DNA from: a virus
Length of the DNA stretch: 23,327 nucleotides
IMG/VR virus record: IMGVR_UViG_3300029705_000088
Strand: one strand, 5' to 3'
In this document: positions 1-13,242 of the stretch, one piece after another
Layout of the letters: each line of letters opens with the position of its first letter
How positions within the stretch are numbered: the stretch's first letter is position 1
The notes under the pieces: model-generated
The model's database searches: none
Seen by the model: only the letters and a program-made list of their open reading frames with translations
Told to the model about the DNA's origin: nothing
Position numbers and translations under genes: made by a program

Positions 1-120
1 ATTTGAGGATAAGAGGGGGGGGAAGTGGGGTGGTTTTTATAAAAAAAAAAAAAAAAAGAAAAAAAACCCTTTTTTTTAAAAAAAAAAAAAAAAAAAAAAA
101 TAAAAAACTTTTCAAAAACC
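1..120. repeat. Low-complexity homopolymer tract (G-run, A20-30 runs, T-runs) at the window edge
   Basis: Runs such as gggggggg, a(18), t(9) and a(24) are visible directly. There is no coding signal. Confidence 0.6.
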
Positions 121-122
121 TA

Positions 123-151
123 TTGACAAAAAACCAAAAGTGTGGTATAAT
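123..151 (+). promoter_or_regulatory. Sigma70-type promoter (TTGACA, 17 bp spacer, extended TGTGGTATAAT)
   Basis: -35 ttgaca at 123-128 and tgtggtataat at 141-151. Upstream motif cttttcaaaaacc. Confidence 0.8.
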
Positions 152-197
152 ATATACAGAGAGAGGGAGAAACCCTCACAGAAAGGAAGTAAATAAA

Positions 198-404
198 ATG
201 ACTACTAACAACAGACCGCATGCCGCTTACAATCTTACTACTGGTGAAGTGCTTATGGCAAACAATGTCAGATGGCTTGAGAGCGCAATCAGAAGCACTA
301 ATATTTATAATGAAACAAATCACAAAATCAAAAGCAAGTGGGTGTTTGCGCATGGTAGAGATTACCAAAAAAAATTAATCGCAAAGATTGGTAAATGCTG
401 GTAA
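198..404 (+). CDS. Hypothetical small protein (68 aa)
   Basis: ATG at 198 sits after the promoter and a leader hairpin (gaggg agaaa ccctc, 163-177), with RBS aaggaag. The upstream part of the 3..404 ORF is translated homopolymer. Confidence 0.7.
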   Translation: MTTNNRPHAAYNLTTGEVLMANNVRWLESAIRSTNIYNETNHKIKSKWVFAHGRDYQKKLIAKIGKCW

Positions 405-428
405 TTCCAGCATTTACCATTTTTAATT
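390..428 (+). terminator. Intrinsic terminator hairpin (ggtaaatgctgg/ccagcatttacc) followed by a T-run
   Basis: A 12-bp inverted repeat overlaps the stop codon and is followed by atttttaattt. Confidence 0.65.
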
Positions 429-559
429 TATGAACAAATTGTAAAATTTCTATGAATAAAAAATTCATAAATTGTTTACAAAAAATTCATTTTTAATTTA
501 CAAATTATTTACAAAATATGCTTGATTTTGAGCCGGCCGCTCGCGTTCCAAGCGGCCGG

Positions 560-860
560 AGTTCACAAATTGTGAACAATTTGTGAATTTTTTGTAAACA
601 AATTGTGAACAAATTGTAAACTTTTTATTTCCCGAATGTGAACAAATTGTGAACAAATTGTAAATTTTTTGTTAACAATTTATGAATTGTTAACAAAAAA
701 TTTACAATTTGTTCACAATTATCTCTGTTCTCGGGCCCCAGGGCCCGAATTTGTGAACAAACTGTGAATTTCAATATTTTTTTTTAAATAAATTGTAAAT
801 AAATTGTGAACAAATTCTCCCGAATGTAAACAAATTGTAAATTTTTAAATTGTAAATTTT
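560..860. repeat. Array of more than 12 iteron-like copies of TGTGAACAAATTGT(A/G)AAC, in both orientations, with GC hairpins
   Basis: Direct and inverted copies are visible. GC hairpins lie at 531-560, 735-750 and 870-895. Confidence 0.8.
645..720. repeat. Large perfect palindrome with 26-bp arms (aattgtgaacaaattgtaaatttttt), capable of forming a cruciform
   Basis: Left arm 645-670 and right arm 695-720 are exact reverse complements. The 24-bp centre, gttaacaatttatgaattgttaac, itself contains GTTAAC palindromes. Confidence 0.85.
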
Positions 861-889
861 TTGTTAACAAACCCTCTCCCCTGCGGCCC

Positions 890-1142
890 GCCGATTGTTA
901 AAAATTTCACACACTTTAGTATGGTAAAGCGTGAAAGTGAAAAACAGTTTTTTGACGATTTTCGTGTTTGTGAAAAATTTCACAATGCCAGCCTTCCGTT
1001 TTGTACGACAAGTGTCGCGGGGCCCCGAAGTCGCGCTTTAGTATGGTAAAGTGATAAAGTGTTAAAATAAGGGGCGGCCGCGCGATTGTTAAAATTTTCA
1101 CGAAATTCCAGTTTTTGGAAAAAACAGTTTTCGCGTTTTCCC
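890..1142. repeat. Pair of about 60-bp direct repeats (gattgttaaaaatttcac ... ctttagtatggtaaagYg ... aaaaacagtttt), each preceded by a GC hairpin, plus a TGTGA-N6-TCACA site at 969-984
   Basis: Element copies lie at 893-911 and 1083-1100, at 914-944 and 1036-1062, and at 940-952 and 1121-1133. The palindrome tgtgaaaaatttcaca is at 969-984. Confidence 0.7.
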
Positions 1143-1440
1143 TACCCGGTAAATTTTGGAAATTCATCCACCATTTGGTAATGGAAGAAACTGGATGCGC
1201 TTGTTAAGAATTTAACGGTCTTTTTACCATTTTCTGGTAAATGGGAAAATTTGTAAGTGCTGGAAGAAAATGGTAAAAGCAGAAAATCGCAAAACTATAC
1301 GCGAACAAATGTTCGTTCGTCAAATTGCACAAAAATGTATAATATACATTTTTAGTCAAATTATACAAAAATGAATATTTATACATTTTTGTGCAAAACG
1401 TACAAAATACATTTTTTTTAAAGAAATTTCAAAAACCCCC

Positions 1441-1469
1441 TTGACAGAATCGCAATTGTGTGGTATAAT
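1441..1469 (+). promoter_or_regulatory. Sigma70-type promoter
   Basis: ttgaca at 1441-1446 and tgtggtataat at 1459-1469, 17 bp apart. Upstream tttcaaaaaccccc. Confidence 0.8.
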
Positions 1470-1527
1470 AGATACAGTAAAGGAAATCCGGAAGCCACAA
1501 AGAACGGAAGAAAGAGAGATTAAAAAA

Positions 1528-1689
1528 ATGACTATTGAAAGCATCACTTTTGAAAAGTATGTAGAAATTGCAAACCTGCTTGATGAATGCGTCGGCGATG
1601 TTTACTTGTACGGCATTGAAGAAATCGCAATTATGTGTGACGTACCCGTTGAAGTTGTTAAGTACGTTGACAGAGCTGAACACGAATAA
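1528..1689 (+). CDS. Hypothetical small protein (53 aa)
   Basis: ATG at 1528 after a conserved leader (ggaaatccggaagcc..aagaacggaagaaagagag). It is in frame within the 1441..1689 ORF. Confidence 0.65.
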   Translation: MTIESITFEKYVEIANLLDECVGDVYLYGIEEIAIMCDVPVEVVKYVDRAEHE

Positions 1690-1708
1690 TAAAAGGGGGA
1701 TAAAAAAG

Positions 1709-1828
1709 ATGTTTTGGTGGTTTATTTTCGCAGACGGCTACAGAACAGCAGTGAAGGGATTCAGCAAGCGCGAGCTTAAGGTGGAAGAAATGAAGCACGG
1801 CAAGCTGGTCAGAAAAATCCCCGCGTAA
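1709..1828 (+). CDS. Hypothetical small protein (39 aa, MFWWFIFADGY...)
   Basis: RBS aaaggggga, 8 nt, then ATG at 1709. A hairpin (atccccgcg taaa gcggggat) overlaps the stop. Confidence 0.5.
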   Translation: MFWWFIFADGYRTAVKGFSKRELKVEEMKHGKLVRKIPA

Positions 1829-1874
1829 AGCGGGGATTGACTCCAACAAAAAATAAAGAAAGAGGTAAAATAAA

Positions 1875-2240
1875 ATGAGCTGTGTTTACTATGCGATGAA
1901 CGAAAAAACGGTGCTTGCTTTACAAGAAAAAAAGCGCGGCACCTACGTCATTAAAATCGGCGAAACAAATAACGTTATCCGAAGAGCAAGAGAGGTATTT
2001 TACAGAGACAAAGACCTAATCATGAAAAATTGGGAGTGCGACGATAATATCGCATATCGCAGAGTAATTGAGGCTAACGCGCATTTGATTCTTGAAAACA
2101 ACTTTGATGTTGAACGTAAAGGGAATGACCATTATATAGTCAAGAACAAAGCAGAGCTTGCGAGAATTGAAAAAGCGCTTGATACACTGATTGAAAAAGC
2201 AATCGCGCAGGCGGATGCGGTTGATAGAATCCCTATGTGA
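1875..2240 (+). CDS. T5orf172/GIY-YIG-superfamily domain protein (121 aa)
   Basis: RBS aagaggtaaaataaaATG. The motif VYYAMNEK...YVIKIGETNNVIRRAREVF resembles the GIY...KIGxT..RR signature of T5orf172 (PF10544-like). It is a paralogue of 10750..11097. Confidence 0.7.
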   Translation: MSCVYYAMNEKTVLALQEKKRGTYVIKIGETNNVIRRAREVFYRDKDLIMKNWECDDNIAYRRVIEANAHLILENNFDVERKGNDHYIVKNKAELARIEKALDTLIEKAIAQADAVDRIPM

Positions 2241-2252
2241 CAGATGTAAAAT

Positions 2253-2290
2253 AAAGCGGCTGGGTGGAAAAAATATCCAGCCGCTTTGGT
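2253..2290 (+). terminator. Intrinsic terminator (aaagcggctgg ... ccagccgcttt)
   Basis: An 11-bp stem is followed by a T-rich tract. Confidence 0.7.
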
Positions 2291-2440
2291 AACAATTTGT
2301 TCATATTCTGTTCACAATTTGTTCATACATTTTTGTTCATATTTTGTTCACAATTTGTTCATAAAATTTTTTTAAAAAATTTACAATTGTGGGCGCCCGC
2401 TCGTTTCCGGGCGTTTACCACCCGAAACGAGCGGTATTTC
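2284..2440. repeat. Inverted-orientation iteron copies (ttgttcacaatttgttcata, at least 4 copies) plus a GC-rich hairpin island (2391-2440)
   Basis: The reverse complement of the 560-860 motif is repeated here. The stem ccgctcgtttc/gaaacgagcgg is visible. Confidence 0.75.
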
Positions 2441-2564
2441 TAATGGCCACCTAATTCCGCATTTTTTATGGCAAAAACTGGATAATTCGCATATGTTTCC
2501 CATTTCCTGAAACTACCAATAGGCCAGTTCACAGAAACTTCACAATCTATTTACAGAATATTCA

Positions 2565-2593
2565 TTGACATTTTTATTAAAATATGATATAAT
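2565..2593 (+). promoter_or_regulatory. Sigma70-type promoter (attgacatttttattaaaatatgatataat variant)
   Basis: ttgaca at 2565-2570 and tataat at 2588-2593, 17 bp apart. Confidence 0.8.
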
Positions 2594-2639
2594 ATATATA
2601 CAGTAAAGGAAAGCCAATAGGCGACCAAAGAAAGGACAC

Positions 2640-2816
2640 ATGGAGATGAAAACTTATGCTTGCTCTGTTTATCACAAGAAATTTGGATGGGATGAATACT
2701 TCGTTAAAGCGAGTAATAAAGGTGAAGCGAAGAAAGAATGTATGTATCGCCTTGATAACGAGACCGATTATCCTGCCAAAGAATGGGAAATCGTGGATGT
2801 GGTAGAGGTCAAGTGA
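2640..2816 (+). CDS. Hypothetical small protein (58 aa, MEMKTYACSVYHKKFGWDEY...), absent from the ORF track because it is under 60 aa
   Basis: ATG at 2640 after the promoter and RBS aaaggacacATG. The ORF runs to TGA at 2814-2816. A perfect hairpin (gtagaggtca/tgacctctac) overlaps the stop. Confidence 0.55.
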   Translation: MEMKTYACSVYHKKFGWDEYFVKASNKGEAKKECMYRLDNETDYPAKEWEIVDVVEVK

Positions 2817-2860
2817 CCTCTACCTTGCGAAAAAAAATTTAAAAAATTTCGCAAAACCTC

Positions 2861-2889
2861 TTGACAAACGACCGGAAATGTGATATAAT
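2861..2889 (+). promoter_or_regulatory. Sigma70-type promoter with upstream TTTCGCAAAACC element
   Basis: ttgaca at 2861-2866 and tgatataat at 2881-2889. Confidence 0.8.
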
Positions 2890-2938
2890 ATATATACAGA
2901 GGAACCCAAGAGGTTCCAAGAGAAAGGAAGTAAAAACT

Positions 2939-3405
2939 ATGTTACCTAAGATGATTTGCTTTGACATGGACGGCACCCTCGCAGACCTTTACAACGTGCC
3001 CAACTGGCTTGAACAGCTTCGTGCGTTTGACCCTGCCCCGTATCGGGAAGCAGAATGTATGTGGGATGAAGAGGAGCTTGCTTGCATCCTGAATACGCTG
3101 ATTGATAACGGCGTTGAAATTCGCATTATCACTTGGCTGTCAAAGGAAAGCACTCCCGAGTATGATGAAGCGGTACGCGAAGCGAAGCGAGAATGGCTTG
3201 AAGCCCTCGGCATTCCTTACACTCACTTCCACGGTGTAAAGTATGGCGCGACTAAGGCTGACAGCATCCGCAGATACCTTGAAGAGGACGAAACCGCTTG
3301 CTCTTTGATGACAATGAAAAGGTTCGCAAGGGCTGGCACATGGGCGAAGCGTTTGACCCGACCGCGATTGATATTCTTGAATTACTGTATGCGCTCTTGG
3401 ATTGA
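2939..3405 (+). CDS. HAD-superfamily 5'(3')-deoxyribonucleotidase-like phosphatase (NT5C family); the reading frame is interrupted by a -1 shift near 3283-3294
   Basis: The product begins MLPKMICFDMDGTLADL, which is HAD motif I (DxDGT). GATKAD supplies the motif III lysine. The motif IV stretch LLFDDNEKVRKGW lies in the -1 frame and ends at TGA 3403-3405. The listed frame instead runs on to 3436 as non-homologous sequence. Confidence 0.7.
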
Positions 3406-3453
3406 GCGCATACAGGTAAATTCAAAAAAGTTTTAATACAGGAAAGAAATAGC

Positions 3454-3645
3454 ATGGAAGAAAATATTCAGTTTAAACGTTTTCAAGCAATTATTGACCC
3501 AAAATCTATTGATATCCCAATTTTTAAATGTGAAGAATGTCCATTAAATGATAAATGCCATGATGAAAAACGCATAGATGATTTTGAGCATACTTGCATA
3601 GAAGCTATCTGGCATTATATTCAAACTGGTGAATTCTTGGCATAA
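3454..3645 (+). CDS. Hypothetical small Cys/His-containing protein (63 aa)
   Basis: RBS aggaaagaaatagcATG. No promoter of its own, so it is probably co-transcribed with the upstream gene. Confidence 0.6.
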   Translation: MEENIQFKRFQAIIDPKSIDIPIFKCEECPLNDKCHDEKRIDDFEHTCIEAIWHYIQTGEFLA

Positions 3646-3677
3646 AAAATTTTTTTCAAAAAATTTCGCAAAACCTC

Positions 3678-3706
3678 TTGACAAACACCGCAAAGTATGA
3701 TATAAT
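3678..3706 (+). promoter_or_regulatory. Sigma70-type promoter with TTTCGCAAAACC element
   Basis: ttgaca at 3678-3683 and tataat at 3701-3706. Confidence 0.8.
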
Positions 3707-3762
3707 ATATATACAGAGGAAATCCGGAAGCCCAAAAGAACGGAAGAAAGAGAGAAAACAAA

Positions 3763-4035
3763 ATGCCTACTGGTAGATTTAATGAAGTTGAAGAGAATGT
3801 TGTTCTGATGGAAGTCACCGCCGAAGAGCTTAAACTTATCATTGAAAGAAGAAAAAAAGAAATTACACGCGATAATTATATGGAAGAATTTAATGATTTA
3901 ATTTCTCGGGCAAGAAAAGATGGTATTTTCTTCTGCGTTCAACGTGGAAGAGTTGCTAACGGAACAAGACTGTTTGAAGAAGATGGTCCAGAATCATATA
4001 CAGATAGATTGAATAATATTCGTATCACCTATTAA
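3763..4035 (+). CDS. Hypothetical protein (90 aa)
   Basis: Conserved leader, the same as the 1528 gene, followed by ATG at 3763. Confidence 0.7.
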   Translation: MPTGRFNEVEENVVLMEVTAEELKLIIERRKKEITRDNYMEEFNDLISRARKDGIFFCVQRGRVANGTRLFEEDGPESYTDRLNNIRITY

Positions 4036-4065
4036 ATAAAAGCCGCCTTTGGGCGGTTTTTTATT
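4036..4065 (+). terminator. Intrinsic terminator (aagccgcc ttt gggcggtttttt)
   Basis: GC stem followed by a T-run. Confidence 0.75.
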
Positions 4066-4160
4066 TCAATTTCAATTTTTGTTTCCATTTTTTGGATTCA
4101 TTTTTTCATTTCAATTCATATTTTGTTTTCATTTTATTTACAAATTTTGACTTGACTTTT

Positions 4161-4196
4161 GGGCCGGCCGCCCGCGCTCCAAGCGGCCGGTTTTTG
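4161..4196. terminator. GC-rich hairpin (gggccggccgcccgcgctccaagcggccgg) plus a T-run. It is a homologue of the 531-560 hairpin and is followed by iteron copies.
   Basis: ccggccgc/gcggccgg stem. gaacaaattgtgaa copies lie at 4195-4252. Confidence 0.6.
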
Positions 4197-4308
4197 AACA
4201 AATTGTGAATTTCAATACTTTTTTGTAAGCATTTTGTAAACAAATTGTGAAGGGAAATTTTCCCAAAATGTTTGTGCAATTTGACGAAAGATTTTTTTCA
4301 AAAACCTA

Positions 4309-4337
4309 TTGACTTTTGGCTTGATATGTGGTATAAT
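4309..4337 (+). promoter_or_regulatory. Sigma70-type promoter
   Basis: ttgact at 4309-4314 and tgtggtataat ending at 4337, 17 bp apart. Confidence 0.8.
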
Positions 4338-4371
4338 ATATATACAGAAAAGAAAGAGAGGTACATCACAA

Positions 4372-4575
4372 ATGACTAACACTAAAATTTATTTTGAGGT
4401 AGAAATTGAGGGCGTAGTAACCCAATTCAATAATTTCAATGATGCCCGTGATGAGTATAACGCGCTCATGGAATGCGGTTTCTACGAAGCCACCCTTCAC
4501 AGAGTAGAAGAAGTCAATGGCGACAAATACATAGTAGTATGGAATGACAGAAGTGCTTGCTTTTTCCCCCGCTAA
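4372..4575 (+). CDS. Hypothetical small protein (67 aa)
   Basis: ATG at 4372 with RBS aaagagagg. Confidence 0.65.
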   Translation: MTNTKIYFEVEIEGVVTQFNNFNDARDEYNALMECGFYEATLHRVEEVNGDKYIVVWNDRSACFFPR

Positions 4576-4604
4576 AAATCTTTAAAAAACTTTCGCAAAA
4601 CCCC

Positions 4605-4633
4605 TTGACAAATCGCTCAAAGTATGATATAAT
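4605..4633 (+). promoter_or_regulatory. Sigma70-type promoter (canonical class-A copy aaaaccccttgacaaatcgctcaaagtatgatataat)
   Basis: ttgaca at 4605-4610 and tataat at 4628-4633. Confidence 0.85.
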
Positions 4634-4675
4634 ATATATACCCCCGATACAGGGGGTAGAAAGAGAGATAGACCA

Positions 4676-5380
4676 ATGAACACAGAAAAGATTGACCGCC
4701 GCAGACATTACATTATCGTGCTTGACACGGAAACCGCAAACACCTTCCGCGATGAAAGAGGACAGCTTGACACAAGTAGTACACTTGTGTATGACCTTGG
4801 GTGGGCGGTAACTGATAAGCATGGAAACATCTACCGCAAAAAGAGTTTTGTAAATTCTGATATTTTCTTCCATGAAGCTGAACTGATGAAGTCGGCATAC
4901 TACGCAAATAAAATCCCGCAGTATCTCGCAGACATTGAAGCGGGTAGGCGCATTGTGGCTAATACCTATCAAATGCGCTCGGCTCTGCTGAATGATATCG
5001 CAGATTTCGCAGTTGATACAATTTGCGCGCATAACGCCCGTTTTGACTACAACAGCCTAAACAGCACAGAGCGCTGGACTACAAAAAGCAAGTACCGCTA
5101 TTTTCTCCCTTATGGAATTACAATTTGGGACAGTATGAAGATGGCGCAAAGTGTAATCGGAAAGATGCCCACCTACCGCGCATTTTGTGAAGAACATGGT
5201 TATCTGACAAAAACTGGCAGACTTTCCATGACAGCGGAAAATCTTTACAGATTCATTTCCCGCAATAATGATTTTGTTGAAAATCATACAGGGCTTGAAG
5301 ATGTGGAAATTGAAGCGCAGATAATGGCGTACTGTTTCAGACAACACAAGGCAATGCAGAAAGAGTTATGGGGGAATTAA
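4676..5380 (+). CDS. DnaQ-like DEDDh 3'-5' exonuclease (234 aa)
   Basis: Exo I is IIVLDTETAN, Exo II is AHNARFDYNSL, and Exo III is HTGLEDVEIEAQ. The leader hairpin ccccc gataca ggggg lies at 4641-4656. Confidence 0.75.
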   Translation: MNTEKIDRRRHYIIVLDTETANTFRDERGQLDTSSTLVYDLGWAVTDKHGNIYRKKSFVNSDIFFHEAELMKSAYYANKIPQYLADIEAGRRIVANTYQMRSALLNDIADFAVDTICAHNARFDYNSLNSTERWTTKSKYRYFLPYGITIWDSMKMAQSVIGKMPTYRAFCEEHGYLTKTGRLSMTAENLYRFISRNNDFVENHTGLEDVEIEAQIMAYCFRQHKAMQKELWGN

Positions 5381-5429
5381 TCCCCCATGACTACCGCAAA
5401 AAAAACTTTAAGAAATTTCGCAAAACCCC

Positions 5430-5458
5430 TTGACAAAACCGCAAAAGTATGATATAAT
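5430..5458 (+). promoter_or_regulatory. Sigma70-type promoter driving the tRNA-like gene
   Basis: ttgaca at 5430-5435 and tataat at 5453-5458. Confidence 0.8.
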
Positions 5459-5498
5459 ATATATACAGAAGAGAGGAACAAATCCTCCCCGATAATAT

Positions 5499-5605
5499 GG
5501 CAGTGAGATAGAAGCGGCTCTATTTCCATAAAGATGGCTTGAGATACAACAAATGGAAACGTTCGCCATTGGAAAACGTAGGTTCAACTCCTACCACTGC
5601 CTCCA
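5499..5605 (+). tRNA. tRNA-like gene, non-canonical length (107 nt). It has a 7-bp acceptor stem, a canonical T-arm and 3' CCA, but the middle part does not fold into a standard anticodon arm.
   Basis: ggcagtg at 5499-5505 pairs with cactgcc at 5595-5601. The T-arm gtagg-ttcaact-cctac is at 5578-5594, the discriminator t is at 5602, and CCA is at 5603-5605. A D-arm-like atag aagcggct ctat is present. I could not place a 7-nt anticodon loop with U33, nor find a CUA anticodon. Confidence 0.45.
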
Positions 5606-5636
5606 AAAAATTTTTCAAAAACTTTTGCAAAACCCC

Positions 5637-5665
5637 TTGACAAATCGCTCAAAGTATGATATAAT
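5637..5665 (+). promoter_or_regulatory. Sigma70-type promoter (class-A copy)
   Basis: ttgaca at 5637-5642 and tataat at 5660-5665. Confidence 0.85.
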
Positions 5666-5749
5666 ATATATACCGAAGCAAGAGGGCACGACCTCCAATC
5701 GGTAAAATAAAAATAATGGGTAGCGACCTACGCTGAAAGGATTGATACC

Positions 5750-6139
5750 ATGGCTACTACTAACTCTACTTCCAAGAAGCTCACTAAGCGCGACCACTTC
5801 AACACCCTGCTCCAGCTCCCCGAAGTTGCCGCAAATCCCGCACTCGTTGATTTCATCAACAACGAACTTGACCTGCTGGCTCGCAAGAACAACAGCGACA
5901 ACAAGAAGCTCACTGAAAAGGACATCGCAAATCAGGGGCTTAAGGCGGCGATTCTTGAATTCGCAACCGCGAGCGGCGAACAGCACACTGTTACCGACTT
6001 CATCAAGAACGTGCCTGCGTGCGCTGGACTTTCTCCGCAGAAGATTACCGCACTGGTTCGCCAGATGGTAGAAGATGGCAAGCTTGAAAAGGTAATCGTA
6101 AAGCGCGTATCTTACTTCCGCATTCCGGAGGGGGTTTAA
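5750..6139 (+). CDS. Hypothetical protein (129 aa), cassette A gene 1, with a possible C-terminal winged helix
   Basis: An 80-nt structured leader ends ...gctgaaaggattgataccATG. Codon usage is rich in C-ending codons. It is a paralogue of 9851..10249. Confidence 0.8.
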   Translation: MATTNSTSKKLTKRDHFNTLLQLPEVAANPALVDFINNELDLLARKNNSDNKKLTEKDIANQGLKAAILEFATASGEQHTVTDFIKNVPACAGLSPQKITALVRQMVEDGKLEKVIVKRVSYFRIPEGV

Positions 6140-6170
6140 TCCCCCTCCCCCAAGAGGGGGGACGTAATCC

Positions 6171-6527
6171 ATGAGCGAACAGGAAAAAGCAATGCGGCGG
6201 CTCGGCTTTACAGATGAAGAAATCGCCGACGTAATGGACGCAGATAAGCGCATTGACAAGGGCGAAAAACTATTTGAGCAGACCGCCGAAGAAAAGAACG
6301 CAAGTAAAGAATTGCGGCGAGCACCGCGCAAAGTCGTTGACGCATACGGCAAAGCAAGCACCAAGGAACGCAAAAGCGACAACGACAAGCAAGCACTAAT
6401 CAAAGGCATTGAAATGGCAATTTTTGACAAAGTGGAAAATCTTACCATTATCAATCCCGAACGTGAAATGGAGTTTCTTTACAATGGTAGAAAATTCAAG
6501 TTGACTCTATCTGCTCCCCGAAAGTAA
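6171..6527 (+). CDS. Hypothetical protein (118 aa), cassette A gene 2
   Basis: ATG at 6171 after the stacked hairpins gaggggg/ccccctc and ccccc aagag ggggg. It is a paralogue of 10285..10692. Confidence 0.75.
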   Translation: MSEQEKAMRRLGFTDEEIADVMDADKRIDKGEKLFEQTAEEKNASKELRRAPRKVVDAYGKASTKERKSDNDKQALIKGIEMAIFDKVENLTIINPEREMEFLYNGRKFKLTLSAPRK

Positions 6528-6537
6528 ATATTTTCCA

Positions 6538-6570
6538 AAATGCATATTACAAATGTAATATGCATTTTTG
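6538..6570. promoter_or_regulatory. Perfect AT-rich palindrome (aaaatgcatattaca aa tgtaatatgcatttt), a candidate operator or terminator
   Basis: The 15-bp arms are exact reverse complements. Confidence 0.5.
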
Positions 6571-6589
6571 TTTATTTTGACGAAAATTT

Positions 6590-6790
6590 CCAGTTCACAA
6601 ATTGTTTACAAAATATACTTGATTTGTTCAAACGCGCGTCGCCGATGGTGGCGCGCGTTTTTTTTGTCAATAGGTAATGTATACAAATTTTCAGAAAATT
6701 TTTGGGCGTTTTTAGTCAATTCATACAAATCCCGCAATTATGAACATTTTGTAAACAATAAAGAAAACCTATTGACTTTTTTATTATAAT
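6590..6790. repeat. About 190-bp intergenic repeat element, copy 1 (tttacaaaatatacttgatttgttcaaac, a GC hairpin with T-run terminator at 6631-6668, then ...caaatcccgcaattatgaacattttgtaaa...)
   Basis: Close similarity to 11150..11340. The GC hairpin aaacgcgcg...cgcgcgttttttttt is visible. Confidence 0.8.
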
Positions 6791-6800
6791 ATGATATAAT
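6772..6800 (+). promoter_or_regulatory. Sigma70-type promoter
   Basis: ttgact at 6772-6777 and tgatataat ending at 6800, 17 bp apart. Confidence 0.8.
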
Positions 6801-6845
6801 ATATATACAGAAAACAAAGAGCCAACAGGCAAAGGAGATAAAACA

Positions 6846-7277
6846 ATGAAAAATATTTACGCTGTTAAGAATTACGTCCGCTTTGATGATGAATGGGAAG
6901 AAATTTTTGTGTGGGATTACAATTATGAGTATCTCACCCCCGAAGAAGCAAAAACCTTTGAAGATACTTTCCGCACGACCTGCCGCACGTTTGAGGAACT
7001 GCGCGAAGAGGTAGACAGATTCCCCGGTATCAAAGAAAATTATACCTTTTTCCGGCGCAGTCCTTACATCCGTGTGCAGGGTTCTGATTGGGATAGCTAT
7101 GGCAAATATTATGATGAAAAGCATTTCAAGAAGCCTATTAGCTTCAAGAAGGTCTGTAAAAGAGTTAATAACCTTTCCATTAATGATTTGATGAAAGTAT
7201 TAACTGCAGAAGATTTTGCAGACTGGTGGAAAGACCACGCAGGCGAAACGCAGTGCCCGTTCAAAAAGAATTCATAA
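6846..7277 (+). CDS. Hypothetical protein (143 aa)
   Basis: RBS aaaggagataaaacaATG. Confidence 0.8.
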   Translation: MKNIYAVKNYVRFDDEWEEIFVWDYNYEYLTPEEAKTFEDTFRTTCRTFEELREEVDRFPGIKENYTFFRRSPYIRVQGSDWDSYGKYYDEKHFKKPISFKKVCKRVNNLSINDLMKVLTAEDFADWWKDHAGETQCPFKKNS

Positions 7278-7296
7278 AATAAATACAAATTATACA

Positions 7297-7325
7297 TTGA
7301 CTTTCTCTCTTGGATGTGGTATAAT
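7297..7325 (+). promoter_or_regulatory. Sigma70-type promoter
   Basis: ttgact at 7297-7302 and tgtggtataat ending at 7325. Confidence 0.8.
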
Positions 7326-7367
7326 ATATATACCCTCCAAGAGAGAGGGTAGAAAGAGGTAAAACAA

Positions 7368-7604
7368 ATGAGAGTTGAGGACATGAGAAATAAGGACAAA
7401 GAGGTAACAATTAAAGACATTAAAGTCGGTGAATGCTTCATTGACTGTGATGGCGATTTAAATATGAAAATAAAAAATATTGAATCTTTTGATTATGAAT
7501 CTATTAATGCTGTAGTGCTTTTAACTGGTCAACTGTGGGCTTGTGATGAAGATAGCCCTATAACTCCAGTAAAAACGCACATTGTAATTGAATCGGAGGG
7601 ATAA
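7368..7604 (+). CDS. Hypothetical protein (78 aa)
   Basis: Leader hairpin ccctc caagaga gaggg at 7333-7349. RBS agaaagaggtaaaacaaATG. Confidence 0.7.
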   Translation: MRVEDMRNKDKEVTIKDIKVGECFIDCDGDLNMKIKNIESFDYESINAVVLLTGQLWACDEDSPITPVKTHIVIESEG

Positions 7605-7610
7605 AAAAAA

Positions 7611-8084
7611 ATGAATATTTTAATTTTTGCAATCGCTACTGTAATTAACGTATCACTTTCCACTATCCGCGCCATTACCACCATTAAAAGCGGTAAATGG
7701 CTGTCCGCTGTGATGAATGCGGTTTGTTATGGTTTCTATCCTCTGATTGTCATGCTGACCGCGCAAGGCACCGTAGGCATTTTGGTGAATATGGCAATTA
7801 CTGCCATCGCAAATTTCATCTGCGTATGGATTATTAAGTTTGTAGAGGAAAAGGCGCGTAAAGATAAACTCTGGAAGATTGAAGCATCTGTGTGTGAGCC
7901 TTACACCGAAAGCCTTTATAATGACTTAAGAGAAAATGGAATTTCTTGTAATTATATTCCCAACATTGGTAAATATACCATTTTCAACATTTACGCAGAA
8001 ACGCAAGCGCAAAGCCTTATTGTAAAAGGACTGCTTGAAGCCAACAAAGCAAAGTATTTTGTGAGCGAAACAAAAATTCTTTAA
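7611..8084 (+). CDS. Membrane protein, UPF0316/DUF2179-like (157 aa). It has N-terminal TM helices and a soluble C-terminal domain.
   Basis: RBS ggagggataaaaaaaaATG. The hydrophobic N-terminus carries a TIR motif, and the layout resembles the UPF0316 (YebE-type) family. This family assignment is recalled from memory and is not a verified similarity. Confidence 0.6.
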   Translation: MNILIFAIATVINVSLSTIRAITTIKSGKWLSAVMNAVCYGFYPLIVMLTAQGTVGILVNMAITAIANFICVWIIKFVEEKARKDKLWKIEASVCEPYTESLYNDLRENGISCNYIPNIGKYTIFNIYAETQAQSLIVKGLLEANKAKYFVSETKIL

Positions 8085-8103
8085 AAAACTTTCGCAAAAC
8101 CTA

Positions 8104-8132
8104 TTGACAAATTCAAAAAAGTGTGGTATAAT
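8104..8132 (+). promoter_or_regulatory. Sigma70-type promoter with TTTCGCAAAACC element
   Basis: ttgaca at 8104-8109 and tgtggtataat at 8122-8132. Confidence 0.8.
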
Positions 8133-8174
8133 ATATACATCCCCGATACAGGGGATAGAAAGGAATAAAACAAA

Positions 8175-8498
8175 ATGAAACTTGGTATTATTTTAGCAAA
8201 ACGTAAAATGGATGAAGAAGATACTGGACATCGCATCATTAAAATTGAAACAAACAATAATGATTTCAAACAGATTATTGATAAATCAATATATATAAAT
8301 AAACATTATAAAGAAACAGATGTTGTGACACGTAGAAAAACTTTTGATAAATTGTGTGATTTACTGGATGAAATTGTTAAACCATATTGTAAAGCAGATG
8401 AAGCAGTTATTTTTGCTTGTACAGCAGATGGTTATGCATTTATTTATGATGATGAAGATTTGGTAAATGAAACAATGAAATATATTTTTAATGAATAA
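8175..8498 (+). CDS. Hypothetical protein (107 aa)
   Basis: Leader hairpin atcccc gataca ggggat at 8139-8156. RBS aaaggaataaaacaaaATG. Confidence 0.7.
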   Translation: MKLGIILAKRKMDEEDTGHRIIKIETNNNDFKQIIDKSIYINKHYKETDVVTRRKTFDKLCDLLDEIVKPYCKADEAVIFACTADGYAFIYDDEDLVNETMKYIFNE

Positions 8499-8515
8499 AA
8501 ATTTTACTAAATCCC

Positions 8516-8544
8516 TTGACAAATAAGCAAAAGTGTGGTATAAT
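8516..8544 (+). promoter_or_regulatory. Sigma70-type promoter
   Basis: ttgaca at 8516-8521 and tgtggtataat ending at 8544. Confidence 0.8.
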
Positions 8545-8591
8545 AATAGTACCCCAATACAGGGGGCACTAAAAGAGAGAGGTAAAATAAA

Positions 8592-8849
8592 ATGACAAGA
8601 ATTGTAAAGCAAATGAAAATGGCAAAAATTTATGTTCCCGCTTGTTATGTTGATGGTGGACAAGGCTCTCGTGGCAACTGGACAAAAGAGACAATTTTTT
8701 ATACGGGTGCTTACACCAGCGAAACAGATATGCAGGAAAAATTTATTAAAGCAAAAGAAGAATGGGATAAAAAGAAAAAAGAATCGTGGGATACTTATTA
8801 TACAGAAGTAAAACTTATAGATTGGTGGGAAAATGTAGAAATTTTGTAA
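8592..8849 (+). CDS. Hypothetical protein (85 aa)
   Basis: Leader hairpin cccc aatacag ggggg. RBS agagaggtaaaataaaATG. Confidence 0.7.
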   Translation: MTRIVKQMKMAKIYVPACYVDGGQGSRGNWTKETIFYTGAYTSETDMQEKFIKAKEEWDKKKKESWDTYYTEVKLIDWWENVEIL

Positions 8850-8855
8850 AACCCC

Positions 8856-8884
8856 TTGACAAATCCGAAGAAATGTGATATAAT
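8856..8884 (+). promoter_or_regulatory. Sigma70-type promoter overlapping the end of the upstream CDS
   Basis: ttgaca at 8856-8861 and tgtgatataat ending at 8884. Confidence 0.8.
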
Positions 8885-8926
8885 AATAGTACCCCCAATA
8901 AAGGGGGGAGAAAGAGGTAAAATAAA

Positions 8927-9160
8927 ATGAAAGTTGCTGTTACACTTTATCGCACGATTGAAATGGATGTAAATGAAGAAGTTTTTGAAAGACTTCATGA
9001 AATCCATAAAGACCCTACCACTTTTGGAGAAGATGAAGATTATTCCGAAGCAAAAGAAATTATCACAAACAGACTGCTGGCACGCTGTGAACTTCATAAT
9101 GGTGAAGAAATTATCGGCGTGTATGCGGCGGAAGATGATATTCCGATTCTTGAATTTTAA
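8927..9160 (+). CDS. Hypothetical acidic small protein (77 aa)
   Basis: Leader hairpin ccccc aataaa gggggg. RBS agaaagaggtaaaataaaATG. Confidence 0.7.
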   Translation: MKVAVTLYRTIEMDVNEEVFERLHEIHKDPTTFGEDEDYSEAKEIITNRLLARCELHNGEEIIGVYAAEDDIPILEF

Positions 9161-9163
9161 TAA

Positions 9164-9200
9164 GGAGAGGGCGCAAGCCCCTCTCTTTCTTTTACTTTTG
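9164..9200 (+). terminator. Intrinsic terminator (ggagaggg cgcaag cccctctc followed by tttcttttactttt)
   Basis: GC stem followed by a T-run. Confidence 0.75.
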
Positions 9201-9472
9201 GCATTCATAATTTATTTACAAATTATTTATAAAAAACACTTGACTTTTGAGTCGCCCGCGGCCGGAGGTCACGGGCGAAATTTTGTCAAGAGATATCGTA
9301 TAAAAAAATTGTAAACATTTTATTAACAATCAAGTGAATTAGCCGTTTTCCCGTAATAAAAAATTAACAAATGAACATAGACTCGTTCACATATTATACC
9401 ATTACCAAAAATTGACAATCTGACTTGTTCTTGGATATTGAAAAAATTTTTTGAGAAATTTTGAAAAACCTC

Positions 9473-9501
9473 TTGACAAAAACGTGATTGTGTGGTATAA
9501 T
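9473..9501 (+). promoter_or_regulatory. Sigma70-type promoter with no ORF downstream (first of three tandem promoters)
   Basis: ttgaca at 9473-9478 and tgtggtataat at 9491-9501. Confidence 0.75.
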
Positions 9502-9579
9502 ATATATGTACCAAACAAAAGGATGCGCGGGGACGCCGAAAGCCACTCAAAAAAATTTGAAAAACTTTTCAAAAACCCC

Positions 9580-9608
9580 TTGACAAATCGCTCAAAGTAT
9601 GGTATAAT
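9580..9608 (+). promoter_or_regulatory. Sigma70-type promoter (class-A copy) driving an ORF-less structured transcript
   Basis: ttgaca at 9580-9585 and tataat at 9603-9608. Confidence 0.8.
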
Positions 9609-9614
9609 ATATAT

Positions 9615-9720
9615 GTCAGGGGCGAGGGTGAGTAAAACCTCGTAAAAAATCTCCTCATCAAGTGAAGTCCAAAATGCGATAAATTGACTTCAAATCTTGA
9701 TAGTATCGCAAAAAATTTTT
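9615..9720 (+). ncRNA. Candidate small non-coding RNA (about 105 nt): a 5' hairpin plus an H-type pseudoknot, ending in AAAAAATTTTT
   Basis: There is no ORF beyond a 10-codon one. The 5' hairpin is cgagg...cctcg (9623-9642). The pseudoknot has S1 at 9657-9669 paired with 9686-9701, and S2 tgcgata (9675-9681) paired with tatcgca (9704-9710), interleaved. Confidence 0.4.
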
Positions 9721-9741
9721 GAAAAACTTTTCAAAAACCCC

Positions 9742-9770
9742 TTGACAAATACCATAAAGTATGGTATAAT
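9742..9770 (+). promoter_or_regulatory. Sigma70-type promoter for cassette B
   Basis: ttgaca at 9742-9747 and tataat at 9765-9770. Confidence 0.8.
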
Positions 9771-9850
9771 ATATATACCGGGTGAGGGAAACCTACCACG
9801 GCAAACAAATTAAAAGGTTGGCAACCTAAACAGCTGAAAGGATTGATACC

Positions 9851-10249
9851 ATGGCTAACACTAATTCTACTCTCAACGCTACCGCAAAGAAGCTCACCAA
9901 GCGTGACCACTTCAACGCCCTCCTCGCTATCCCCTCTGTAGCATCTAACCCCACGCTCGTTGAATTCATTGAAAATGAGCTTGACCTACTGGCTCGTAAG
10001 AACGCTAAGCCGTCTGGCAAGCAGATGGAAAAGAAGGAAGCAAACGATGCGCTGAAGCAGGCAATGCTTGACTACCTCGCAAATGATGGCGGTCAGCACA
10101 CCGTTACTGACTTCATCAAGAATGTTCCCGAATGCGCTGGACTGTCCCAGCAGAGAATCACTGCGCTTGTCCGTCAGCTGGTAGAAGATGGCAAGATGGA
10201 AAAGGTGATTGAAAAGCGCGTTTCCTACTTCAAGCTGGCAGAGGTTTAA
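9851..10249 (+). CDS. Hypothetical protein (132 aa), cassette B gene 1, paralogue of 5750..6139
   Basis: The same structured leader ending gctgaaaggattgataccATG. About 60% identity to the cassette A protein by eye. C-ending codon bias. Confidence 0.8.
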   Translation: MANTNSTLNATAKKLTKRDHFNALLAIPSVASNPTLVEFIENELDLLARKNAKPSGKQMEKKEANDALKQAMLDYLANDGGQHTVTDFIKNVPECAGLSQQRITALVRQLVEDGKMEKVIEKRVSYFKLAEV

Positions 10250-10284
10250 TCCTCTGCCACGCCTAACCAAAAGAGGTGATGAAG

Positions 10285-10692
10285 ATGGAACTGACCCGAG
10301 CCGACAAAGCGCAAGTCAAGCGAATTCAAGAGGGCTTGCGCTGTACCGAAGAAGAAGCTCTTGAGGTTTTGTCCTATGACAAGGAAGTTGAGAAGGCTTC
10401 CGCTAATGACAGGCTGGCGTACGACCTTGACAAGGAGACAGAGAAGGAAGCGATGCGTATGGCTAACTGCCGCGACCGCAAGCCTACTGTTTACAATTTC
10501 TCCCAGCGTGAGCGCAAGGCAAATCCCACAAAGGGCGGAATAATCGCAGAATTGGCGGAGTTTTTGACAAAAAACAGTCAGTTTGCGACCGAAGATGTGG
10601 AAATTACCAACAAAGAACGGCAAATTGCGTTCAAAATTGGTGAAGATGCCTTTGAATTGACGCTTGTTCAGAAGCGAAAGCCCAAAAAGTAA
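10285..10692 (+). CDS. Hypothetical protein (about 136 aa), cassette B gene 2, paralogue of 6171..6527
   Basis: RBS aagagg. Candidate ATGs lie at 10279 and 10285; the track uses GTG at 10276. Confidence 0.7.
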   Translation: MELTRADKAQVKRIQEGLRCTEEEALEVLSYDKEVEKASANDRLAYDLDKETEKEAMRMANCRDRKPTVYNFSQRERKANPTKGGIIAELAEFLTKNSQFATEDVEITNKERQIAFKIGEDAFELTLVQKRKPKK

Positions 10693-10694
10693 AG

Positions 10695-10724
10695 AAAAGT
10701 GGGAATTTTTCCCACTTTTCACTT
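10695..10724 (+). terminator. Intrinsic terminator (aaaagtggga atttt tcccactttt)
   Basis: 10-bp stem followed by a T-run. Confidence 0.7.
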
Positions 10725-10749
10725 AAATTTTAGTCAAAAAGATGCAAAA

Positions 10750-11097
10750 ATGGCAGAAAAAGAGTTTCTTTATGTGGGTTTTTACCACGATACCGACAAA
10801 AATTTTGTTCTAAAGATTGGAACAACTAACGACCTAAAGCGCAGACAGGCAGAGCACACGCGCAATTATAGGAAAAGCCCTGAACACACAATGCCGCCAG
10901 ATGGCAAATTTACCTATTTATGGAAGCTGCCCCTTTCAAAATATAATACTCTGCGTTTTGAGGACAGAAACCGCCAAAAGTGGCAGGAAATGGGAATTGG
11001 TGAATATGTGCGGAACGACCGCTTTGTTCTCCATGAAATTCCACCACAGGTAGAAATTACCATCCGCAAAACTTATACAATCCCTCTACTGATGTAG
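10750..11097 (+). CDS. T5orf172/GIY-YIG-superfamily protein (115 aa), with no promoter of its own, inserted into copy B of the duplicated cassette
   Basis: FLYVGFYHDTDKNFVLKIGTTNDLKRRQAEH matches the GIY..YIG..R..H pattern and is paralogous to 1875..2240. The gene ends with TAG inside a terminator hairpin. Confidence 0.7.
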   Translation: MAEKEFLYVGFYHDTDKNFVLKIGTTNDLKRRQAEHTRNYRKSPEHTMPPDGKFTYLWKLPLSKYNTLRFEDRNRQKWQEMGIGEYVRNDRFVLHEIPPQVEITIRKTYTIPLLM

Positions 11098-11112
11098 AGG
11101 GATTTTCTTTTG
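11082..11112 (+). terminator. Intrinsic terminator (ccctctac tgat gtagaggg plus a T-rich tract) that contains the TAG stop
   Basis: Perfect 8-bp stem followed by attttcttttg. Confidence 0.65.
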
Positions 11113-11149
11113 TGCATAATGACGAAAATGCTGTGTTCATAATTTATTT

Positions 11150-11340
11150 ACAAAATATACTTGATTTGTTCAAACGCCCGCGACCGGAGGCCACGGGCGT
11201 TATTTTGTCAAGTGGTAATCTATACAAATTTTCAGAAATTTTTTTAACATTTTTGTACAAACCGCACAAATCCCGCAATTATGAACATTTTGTAAATAAA
11301 CAAGAATATCTATTGACATTTTTATAAAAATATGATATAA
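11150..11340. repeat. About 190-bp intergenic repeat element, copy 2 (homologue of 6590..6790)
   Basis: The same tttacaaaatatacttgatttgttcaaacgc, a GC hairpin (gcccgcgaccggaggccacgggcg), and ...caaatcccgcaattatgaacattttgtaaa. Confidence 0.8.
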
Positions 11341-11341
11341 T
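11313..11341 (+). promoter_or_regulatory. Sigma70-type promoter
   Basis: ttgaca at 11313-11318 and tgatataat ending at 11341. Confidence 0.8.
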
Positions 11342-11381
11342 ATATATACAGTAAAGAACCAACAGAAAGAGAGCAAATAAA

Positions 11382-11579
11382 ATGGATATGTGGATGAGCG
11401 ACCTTTTAGAAGCTACCGCAAGAGTAAAAGTACATAAAGGAAAAAATTTCTGTATCAAGTCTGCCCTTCCTGCGGTTGATGGCATTGTATTTGAAACTAC
11501 TTACTTCACTTACATTAAATGGTATCGCGCAGATGGACGCATTGAAGAACATTCTAAAGACGCATGGAGGAATAAATAA
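11382..11579 (+). CDS. Hypothetical protein (65 aa)
   Basis: RBS agagagcaaataaaATG. Confidence 0.65.
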   Translation: MDMWMSDLLEATARVKVHKGKNFCIKSALPAVDGIVFETTYFTYIKWYRADGRIEEHSKDAWRNK

Positions 11580-11580
11580 A

Positions 11581-11808
11581 ATGAATACACTTGTAATCAG
11601 CGAAAAGTTGATTGAATACTTTGAGCAGGAAGTAAAAGACGCAGAAAGAGCGCTTGAACGCAATCTTTACACGCCCCTTGAAATCGTAGATAACGCAAAA
11701 CAGCGAATGCTTGGAGCGACTACTCTGTGCCAGTATCTTGGTATTGAATATTTGTTCCTTGAAGCAAACTATGAAGCATACACAAAAAAACTTGAAAAAC
11801 TTTTATAA
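11581..11808 (+). CDS. Hypothetical protein (75 aa)
   Basis: ATG at 11581, in frame within the 11476..11808 ORF. RBS aggaataaataaaATG, with the stop and start adjacent. Confidence 0.65.
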   Translation: MNTLVISEKLIEYFEQEVKDAERALERNLYTPLEIVDNAKQRMLGATTLCQYLGIEYLFLEANYEAYTKKLEKLL

Positions 11809-11814
11809 AACCCC

Positions 11815-11843
11815 TTGACAAATCGCGCAAAGTATGGTATAAT
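11815..11843 (+). promoter_or_regulatory. Sigma70-type promoter (class-A copy)
   Basis: ttgaca at 11815-11820 and tataat at 11838-11843. Confidence 0.85.
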
Positions 11844-11887
11844 AATAGTACCCCCCAGAGAGGGGGGGAGAAAGAGAGTAAAATAAA

Positions 11888-12295: not shown

Positions 12296-12319
12296 TCGCC
12301 CTTCATGGAGGTAAAGAAA

Positions 12320-13210: not shown

Positions 13211-13213
13211 AAT

Positions 13214-13242
13214 TTGACTTTTTTAAAAATTTATGATATAAT
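13214..13242 (+). promoter_or_regulatory. Sigma70-type promoter, class B (ttgactttttt aaaaatt tatgatataat)
   Basis: ttgact at 13214-13219 and tataat at 13237-13242. The promoter plus leader is about 60 bp and nearly identical to 16085-16145. Confidence 0.8.

Follow-up and report, generated by a model that had tools for sequence, protein, structure and literature searches.

Short hairpins behind the early promoters of an uncultured gut phage as candidate 5' mRNA stabilisers

The analyzed window is the whole 23,327-nucleotide (nt) stretch of IMG/VR virus record IMGVR_UViG_3300029705_000088, the early region of an uncultured gut phage for which we infer both the "early" timing and the host. The elements under study are short G/C-clamp hairpins in the leaders of its early transcripts. 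The window contains 24 near-perfect host-type promoters on the plus strand (TTGAC[A/T]-17 nt-TGnTATAAT), 19 of them within 1-12000, and 16 match the consensus at 12/12 positions. The transcription start (+1) was placed at the 7th nt downstream of the -10 hexamer; all starts are predictions, and the predicted base was A or G at every promoter. The early transcription units comprise one to three genes, each unit with its own promoter. The leaders are taken to belong to early transcripts of the host RNA polymerase (sigma-A/sigma-70 type). The host is probably a Firmicute, because the -10 elements are extended, the Shine-Dalgarno (SD) sequences complement the very 3' terminus of 16S rRNA, and relatives occur in bins of metagenome-assembled genomes assigned to Clostridia and Erysipelotrichaceae. 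A megablast search of 1-12000 against the INPHARED phages gave no match.

The original prediction listed eight inverted repeats, and all eight were found in the sequence where it had placed them. Each sits behind a TTGAC[A/T]-17-TGnTATAAT promoter, seven with 12/12 hexamers and one, P7297 (TTGACT), with 11/12. The claim that the hairpin directly follows the predicted +1 holds for the six that start at +1 or +2 (4640, 7332, 8139, 8552, 8892 and 11851) and fails for those at 163 and 2901, which start at +6. Two extents grew, from 4641-4656 to 4640-4657 by an A-T pair and from 7333-7349 to 7332-7350, and the repeat at 8552 shrank to 4 base pairs (bp) at 8552-8565. A ninth early hairpin at 5473-5487 was added to the list. 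The proposed reach, "almost every early transcript", was too wide: among the 19 promoters in 1-12000, eight carry a listed hairpin, nine with the addition, and 10/19 have no such hairpin. The use is not systematic either, since flush hairpins stand behind 6/19 promoters only, and the idea of a phage-induced RNase response finds no support in the data.

The flush hairpins, like all modules described here, lie on the plus strand. In P4605 (4605-4675; +1 at 4640), ACCCCC/GATACA/GGGGGT occupies 4640-4657 and is followed by the SD AGAAAGAGAG at 4658-4667 and the ATG of a DnaQ-like exonuclease gene at 4676; the minimum free energy (MFE) is -12.5 with a z-score of -3.8. P7297 (7297-7367; +1 at 7332) has ACCCTC/CAAGAGA/GAGGGT at 7332-7350, the SD AGAAAGAGG at 7351-7359 and the ATG at 7368. 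P8104 (8104-8174; +1 at 8139) has ATCCCC/GATACA/GGGGAT at 8139-8156, the SD AGAAAGGA at 8157-8164 and the ATG at 8175. The hairpin of P8856 (8856-8926; +1 at 8891) is CCCCC/AATAAA/GGGGG at 8892-8907, with the SD AGAAAGAGG at 8909-8917 and the ATG at 8927. That of P11815 (11815-11887; +1 at 11850) is CCCCCC/AGAGA/GGGGGG at 11851-11867, with the SD AGAAAGAGAG at 11869-11878, the ATG at 11888, an MFE of -13.9 and a z-score of -3.1. P8516 (8516-8591; +1 at 8551) carries the near-flush 4-bp CCCC/AATACA/GGGG at 8552-8565, ahead of an ATG at 8592.

Three further hairpins are offset from the start. P123 (123-197; -35 at 123-128, -10 at 146-151, +1 at 158) has GAGGG/AGAAA/CCCTC at 163-177 (+6), the SD AAAGGAAG and the ATG at 198 (MFE -8.0, z-score -2.8). 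P2861 (2861-2938; +1 at 2896) has GGAACC/CAAGA/GGTTCC at 2901-2917 (+6) before the ATG of a HAD-like hydrolase gene at 2939. P5430 (5430-5496; +1 at 5465) has the added hairpin, GAGGA/ACAAA/TCCTC at 5473-5487 (+9), and precedes a tRNA-like gene at 5499-5602 and not a coding sequence. The other early leaders are those with a conserved loop (P1441, P3678), a mini-hairpin (P2565, P6772), a larger structure (P5637, P9742) or no stem (P4309, P11313), and two that lead into non-coding stretches (P9473, P9580).

The hairpins are concentrated at the predicted starts. A whole-window scan found about 27 distinct perfect G/C-rich hairpins in 23.3 kb, mostly longer stems at gene ends, and eight of these begin within +1 to +9 of the 24 predicted starts, an interval that makes up 0.9% of the window. 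The MFE of +1 to +24 was -7.5 kcal/mol or lower at 9/19 early promoters, compared to 2.9% of background 24-mers of the same region (binomial p ~1e-9). The G/C-clamp hairpins ranged from -7.6 to -13.9 kcal/mol, and z-scores of single leaders against dinucleotide shuffles ranged from -1.5 to -3.8. The observation is regarded as real on the basis of the positional enrichment and of folds more stable than background, and a chance origin was ruled out (p ~1e-9).

For the analysis of leader geometry, the window and its close relatives supplied 51 unique short leaders, and a stem was predicted in 40. The layout was +1, an optional purine tail of 0-14 nt, the stem-loop, an extended SD AGAAAGAG, a spacer of 7-9 nt and the ATG. 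Stem position was fixed relative to both the predicted +1 and the SD. In 85% of the 40 stems, the 3' end preceded the ATG by 15-22 nt (mode 18), and the purine-rich SD (AGAAAGAGRG) directly adjoined the stem in 34/40. The 5' gap was bimodal, with 0-2 nt in 21/40 and 5-16 nt in 19/40. In the flush class, every nucleotide between the predicted 5' end and the ribosome-binding site (RBS) is in the stem. In P8516 the ATG is 26 nt from the stem, yet the stem remains at +2, which argues for the predicted 5' end as a separate anchor.

The SD-side regularity introduces another explanation, in which the hairpin helps or insulates translation initiation: a stem 5' of the SD would keep it single-stranded and independent of context, or would stack on the SD-anti-SD helix, and would set translation efficiency and not the lifetime of the mRNA. 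The 3' boundary is indeed the most uniform trait of the leaders, next to a 5' gap that spans 0-16 nt. Even the SD-adjacent 3-bp mini-hairpins are kept by compensation; the one compensated change, GCC/GGC to GCT/AGC, gives GCT/AACA/AGC as the L043 form of P6772. Hairpins also occur before internal genes, at 12283-12304 and at 6147-6160, where a promoterless CCCCC/AAGA/GGGGG lies between genes 5750-6139 and 6171-6527, 10 nt before the ATG, and they occur before the tRNA-like gene. However, the leaders are purine-rich throughout, so that an adjoining purine run is partly trivial, and the stemless leaders (P4309, P11313 and all late-region promoters) carry the same SD. The stem of P8516 also does not follow its distant ATG, and the covarying +1 base described below would be unneeded for a purely SD-related role. 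We regard the translational explanation as possible but rather doubtful.

To compare the leaders across strains, close relatives were collected by exact-protein look-ups; a metagenome scan yielded only relatives at 48-55% identity. The exonuclease of P4605 has 6,549 database homologues; thus, the phage group is very widespread in gut metagenomes. Relatives L014-L020 encode an identical exonuclease and have identical hairpins, hence they were uninformative for covariation. The informative relatives, at 85-93% identity, were L025, L039, L041 and L043, in which orthologous genes keep a hairpin and its sequence is swapped.

In the exonuclease leader, ACCCCC-GATACA-GGGGGT of the window is replaced by GTCCTC-AAGA-GAGGAT in L041, by GTCCTC-AAGA-GAGGGC in L043 and by GTTC-CCAAGAGA-GAAC in L025 and L039, while the RBS AGAAAGAGAGAcAgACCAATG downstream of the hairpin is conserved in the window and in all these relatives. 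The P8856 orthologues keep the C5/G5 stem unchanged, and the loop AATAAA becomes GATAC in L025 and GATACA in L039. In the P11815 orthologues, the stem goes from 6 to 4-5 bp of C/G and the loops are CAAAGA or AAAGA. The P4309 promoter, with a stemless leader in the window, drives a flush-hairpin leader (GTCCTC/AAGA/GAGGAT) in L025 and L041. At the HAD-like gene of P2861, GGAACC-CAAGA-GGTTCC of the window corresponds to ACTG-GAAGCCCAAAAGAA-CAGT, a hairpin of the conserved-loop class, in L039. This exchange at an orthologous gene indicates that the hairpin classes are interchangeable. Among more distant relatives, L027 (70% identity) has only offset types of the form GAGGG..CCCTC, hairpins are mostly absent in L029 and L031 (66-68%), and flush [G/A]YCCC-AAG(A)-GGGR hairpins appear again in L034 (about 50%). 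When IMG/VR was searched with the exonuclease and two promoter patterns, only unrelated or very distant phages were returned, which were used as a negative control; no such leader was found among 45 in unrelated IMG/VR phages with the same promoter type.

Covariation was measured from two fold-independent anchors, the SD motif and the +1 position given by the promoter. Among the 40 unique leaders of the close clade, the first six nt and the six nt before the SD pair 6/6 in 10. The Watson-Crick score was 5.5 with a leader's own partner and 4.3 with swapped partners, and none of 20,000 permutations was as good (p<5e-5). The predicted +1 base lies inside the stem in 12/40, and its partner covaries (A-T in 8, G-C in 3, G.U in 1). 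This gives indirect support to the predicted starts and to selection for a blunt 5' end. The hairpins are maintained as structure and not as sequence, since the arms covary within and between strains while the loops drift.

The drift of the loops bears on a second proposal, that the hairpins are sites for a phage or host RNA-binding protein, with a role in boxB/N-like antitermination or as translational operators through which early gene expression is coordinated. The shape is boxB-like, with G/C stems of 5-6 bp and A-rich loops of 5-7 nt soon after early promoters. Recognition through the recurring GATACA loop, as put forward originally, is unlikely: G/C-clamp loops vary within the window (AGAAA, CAAGA, GATACA, CAAGAGA, AATAAA, AGAGA) and between close strains (AATAAA/GATAC/GATACA; AGAGA/CAAAGA) while the stems stay, and entire hairpin classes are swapped at orthologous genes. 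No boxA-like element was noticed on reading the leaders, for which no dedicated boxA motif search was run. Pfam and PHROGs returned no recognisable RNA-binding or ARM-type domain in the early proteins, and antitermination would be unneeded in units of one to three genes with their own promoters. As a general explanation for the hairpins, a protein site appears improbable.

Protein binding is more plausible for the second leader class, in which an almost invariant 14-nt loop, GAAGCCCAAAAGAA, sits on a freely covarying 4-bp stem, the pattern expected of a recognised loop. In P1441 (1441-1527; +1 at 1476), TCCG at 1487-1490 and CGGA at 1505-1508 enclose the loop GAAGCCACAAAGAA at 1491-1504, the hairpin abuts the SD AGAAAGAGAG, and the ATG is at 1528. 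In P3678 (3678-3762; +1 at 3713), TCCG at 3723-3726 and CGGA at 3741-3744 enclose GAAGCCCAAAAGAA at 3727-3740, again abutting AGAAAGAGAG, with the ATG at 3763. The consensus of both is TCCG-GAAGCC[C/A][A/C]AAAGAA-CGGA. The copies, at approximate positions, are window 1487-1508 and 3723-3744, L014 2550-2571 and 4780-4801, L025 722-743 and 4786-4807, L039 8-29, and L041 442-463 and 2709-2730. Their stem variants are TCCG/CGGA, GCCT/AGGC, ACCG/CGGT, GCGC/GCGC and ACTG/CAGT; GAGGAAA lies upstream and AGAAAGAGAG downstream, and the genes behind them are unrelated. Across the nine homologous leaders, 97% of the stem cells are paired compared to 66% in shuffles, and shifted registers fall to 11-44%. 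Three of the four pairs show compensatory changes (UA/GC/AU, CG/GC/UA and GC/CG/UA). This pattern suggests that the conserved loop has a specific partner, and binding of a protein is plausible for this loop and unlikely for the G/C clamps.

A broader version treats the hairpins, above all NNNN-GAAGCCCAAAAGAA-N'N'N'N', as interchangeable "address tags" read by a phage or host RNA-binding protein or by the ribosome. The reading factor would time, boost or shut off the early regulon, or would shield it from a host defence nuclease that senses 5' ends. If this was the case, the leaders would form a regulon-wide RNA code instead of a passive means of stabilisation; we consider it an outside chance.

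Palindromes at +1 to +18 occupy a classic operator position, and they could act on the DNA as operators of a dimeric repressor over +1, or on the opposite strand as terminators of antisense transcription into the promoters. A consensus scan flagged minus-strand copies at 4658-4639, 7351-7331, 8157-8138, 8909-8892 and 11870-11851, because in these copies the stem runs into the complemented AT-rich -10 and discriminator. But seven half-sites (CCCCC, CCCTC, TCCCC, GGAACC, GAGGG, TCCTC, GTTC) occur with spacings of 4-8 nt, and it is the complementarity that is conserved, which points to a folded strand. The asymmetry between G.U and C.A was slight, about three G.U cases on the plus strand compared to about two C.A cases, the G.U pairs arising in GTCCTC..GAGGAT and GAGGGC. 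The minus-strand tail is UAUAUAUUAU, alternating UAUAUAUU, and has no U-tract. Furthermore, the minus-strand open reading frames (ORFs) in 1-13 kb have no promoter-like signal and no called-gene match in near-identical loci, where all genes are called on the plus strand. A DNA-level or opposite-strand role is therefore highly improbable.

Several defined elements were rejected as identities. The stems are followed by AGAAAGAG without a T-run, and the scan reported none of them as a plus-strand terminator, which excludes an intrinsic terminator or attenuator on the coding strand. They are too short for RNase III sites. A boxB/nut site was rejected because the loops are 4-8 nt long and non-conserved and no N-like candidate protein was found by Pfam or PHROGs, and a palindromic repressor operator because there is no conserved half-site or fixed spacing. 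An Rfam scan of the window at gathering thresholds gave no match. The covariance-model search suggested in the original prediction found no Rfam family, known 5' UTR elements included, at or near its gathering score over the hairpins. A permissive scan (E<=5, 1-13300) returned over the hairpins only unrelated families far below gathering, which were treated as noise. These were Clostridium-PBP at 2875-2941 (28.3 vs 94.4 bits, E 2.6), a minus-strand match to Corio-PBP at 6114-6195, and two microRNA families, mir-67 and mir-4680, at 7290-7358. The remaining permissive matches fell on AT-rich palindromes and the tRNA-like gene.

The reading we prefer, with moderate confidence, is that the hairpins are 5'-terminal or SD-abutting mRNA stabilisers in short early leaders. 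In Bacillus subtilis, mRNA is stabilised by a 5' hairpin and/or by an RBS or bound protein near the 5' end; RppH requires at least two unpaired 5' nt, and RNase J1 enters at a monophosphorylated single-stranded 5' end (PMC3997798). A flush stem fits this rule, since starting at +1 or +2 it would leave 0-1 unpaired nt. Such a stem would hinder 5'-end-dependent decay at the steps of pyrophosphate removal by RppH, 5'-to-3' entry of RNase J1 and 5'-end sensing by RNase E/Y. As it ends where the ribosome-covered SD starts, there would be almost no naked single-stranded leader. The offset and conserved-loop classes keep a purine-rich, SD-like 5' tail, and their stems may act as roadblocks just upstream of the RBS. 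The original idea of 5'-end protection thus gains from the covariation of the +1 base with its partner and from hairpins of altered sequence in the relatives, and loses from a stem position that is also fixed relative to the SD.

A number of observations weigh against stabilisation. Flush leaders are a minority of 6/19, and three hairpins leave a 5' tail of 5-8 nt, which would weaken protection. P4309 and P11313 are stemless, as are the five promoters past 13.2 kb (13214, 16085, 18462, 20163 and 21873), which have A-rich leaders of 26-36 nt. The stem is tied to the SD at least as tightly as to the 5' end, so that a translation role is inseparable from 5'-end protection. Hairpins are also present at an internal gene (6147-6160) and at the tRNA-like gene (5473-5487), where mRNA 5' protection is not an obvious need. 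The 3-bp GCC/GGC and the 4-bp GTTC/GAAC (-2.8 kcal/mol) are too weak to stop an exonuclease. Finally, the relatives at 66-70% identity (L027, L029 and L031) are mostly without flush hairpins, which indicates that the flush hairpin is dispensable.

If the hairpins are stabilising, the leaders would form a natural library of minimal 34-40 nt units with a consensus promoter, a 5' clamp and an extended SD, on which evolution has already done the compensatory-mutation and module-swap experiments. They would be a clean system in which to test how 5'-end-dependent decay works in Clostridia-type hosts, whose rules for it are poorly known, and could serve as compact expression parts. The current picture of mRNA decay is unchanged by the finding.

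The remaining early leaders are of several kinds. P2565 (2565-2639; +1 at 2600; ATG 2640) has only the 3-bp mini-hairpin GCC/AATA/GGC at 2613-2622, and in P6772 (6772-6845; +1 at 6807; ATG 6846) GCC/AACA/GGC at 6821-6830 abuts the SD AAAGGAG. P4309 (4309-4371; +1 at 4344; ATG 4372) has a purine-rich leader of 28 nt and P11313 (11313-11381; +1 at 11348; ATG 11382) one of 34 nt, both stemless. P5637 (5637-5749; +1 at 5672; ATG 5750) has a structured leader of 78 nt with an outer stem ACCGA...TCGGT from +1. Its paralogue P9742 (9742-9850; +1 at 9777; ATG 9851) has a structured leader of 74 nt whose first stem begins at +2. These two leaders, each with the 3' end CTGAAAGGATTGATACCATGGCT, precede the copies of a duplicated two-gene cassette (5637-6527 and 9742-10692), which encodes a protein of 129/132 amino acids (aa) with a weak winged-helix-like match (Mnd1 HTH) and a protein of 118/135 aa. 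In the distant relatives L029 and L034, a cassette-gene orthologue follows a covarying stem with the loop AAGGACA and then AAAAACCAGAAAGGA. Two other small early genes, at 1875-2240 and 10750-11097, gave T5orf172-domain matches (E 5e-4 and 8e-5).

Downstream of P9473 (9473-9579; +1 at 9508) lies a short non-coding stretch, and downstream of P9580 (9580-9741; +1 at 9615) one of about 120 nt, neither with an ORF or an SD. The two stretches (9508-9579 and 9615-9741) are possibly small RNAs, and neither had an Rfam match. Transcripts starting with GUCA[A/G]G[A/G]GG recur behind consensus promoters in L014 (3750), L025 (2326), L039 (1434), L043 (326), L027 (8995) and L034.

The tRNA-like gene at 5499-5602, under its own promoter P5430, scored 29.4 bits with the Rfam tRNA model (gathering 29) and has an anticodon-arm insertion of 41 nt; ARAGORN found no tRNA. 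In-frame TAG codons in genes around 16575-17370 suggest that TAG is recoded in the later region, and the candidate tRNA-like gene could be a TAG suppressor.

Non-coding islands lie at 420-900, 2280-2420, 4060-4260, 6530-6760, 9185-9420, 11105-11300 and 12740-13100. They are filled with direct and inverted CAAATTGTGAACAAATTGTAAA-like repeats; one such arrangement, at 645-720, is a perfect palindrome whose arms measure 36 bp. Each island also contains a long G/C-rich hairpin, such as 6630-6660 followed by TTTTTTTTGTCAATAGGTAAT. The same combination of G/C hairpin, T-run and GTCAA motif occurs directly behind a consensus promoter in relatives and unrelated phages (L029 11671; L031 9462, 11707 and 13485; L002; L005). 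Four other G/C-rich hairpins, at 5368-5388, 6127-6148, 10236-10259 and 12283-12304, span a stop codon and end a short distance ahead of the following gene's SD within one operon. Their loops (ATTAA, TTTAAT, TTTAAT and GTAA) include the TAA stop, with no clear T-run, and these hairpins could be internal stability or processing elements.

Upstream of P123, a long A/T homopolymer tract occupies 40-110. The starts of four independent assemblies (L016, L017, L019 and L020) all fall within about 125 nt on the upstream side of the P123 equivalent. L014 and L015 continue beyond this point and show nine and three further promoter-leader modules upstream, respectively. Therefore, the window start is probably an assembly break and not a genome end. 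From 13800-16100 onward, the composition shifts sharply from 37-46% to 22-33% G+C; at 14-16 kb the GC skew is strongly negative and the ORFs are on the minus strand.

The repeated hairpins of this phage recall the T7 phi10 leader with its 5' stem-loop, but T7 transcribes with a polymerase of its own and has a single leader type. The 5'-terminal stem-loops of Escherichia coli ompA and papA are alike in that structure matters and sequence does not (Emory, Bouvet and Belasco 1992; Bricker and Belasco 1999; cited in PMC3997798). They belong to single cellular genes with long 5' untranslated regions in an RNase E organism, whereas the phage has many leaders of 34-40 nt with SD-abutting stems and a presumed stabilising effect. 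The B. subtilis aprE leader, in which a stem-loop at +1 is followed by a strong RBS (Hambraeus et al. 2002), comes closest, both by its layout and by the probable biology of the host (RNase J1, RNase Y, RppH); aprE is a single host gene, whereas the phage hairpins swap from gene to gene and from strain to strain and include offset and very weak forms.

The 5' stabiliser of phage SP82 is likewise an SD-like polypurine near the 5' end of an early RNA (Hue, Cohen and Bechhofer 1995; cited in PMC3997798). Here, an SD-like polypurine tract, ACAGAGGAAA or AGAGAGAGGG, opens the leaders of the offset and conserved-loop classes. The cryIIIA STAB-SD is reportedly another SD-like polypurine 5' stabiliser. 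Both systems differ in relying on 16S rRNA or ribosome binding without a hairpin, whereas the phage leaders here combine a polypurine tail with a stem. In phage T4, the intergenic CUUCGG hairpins and the gene 32 5' hairpin are short stable hairpins linked to mRNA stability (Tuerk et al. 1988; Gorski et al. 1985; PMC8948821). The repeated use of very stable short hairpins in phage messages is shared, but T4 employs a special UUCG tetraloop, whereas the loops here are plain A-rich 4-8-mers and stability comes from C/G runs.

The lambda-type boxB (nut), which has a conserved GNRA-like pentaloop, is alike in shape only, with a 5-bp G/C-rich stem and an A-rich pentaloop after early promoters; here there is no conserved loop, no boxA seen on reading, no N-like protein found, and many short transcription units. 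In organisation, the region is similar to the SPO1 host-takeover module (PMC6873191), where many small early genes of unknown function each have a strong host promoter and a strong RBS. Compared to these systems, what is new here is how many instances there are, how exactly they are registered to the SD and to the predicted +1, and that they form a natural series of swaps and covariation.

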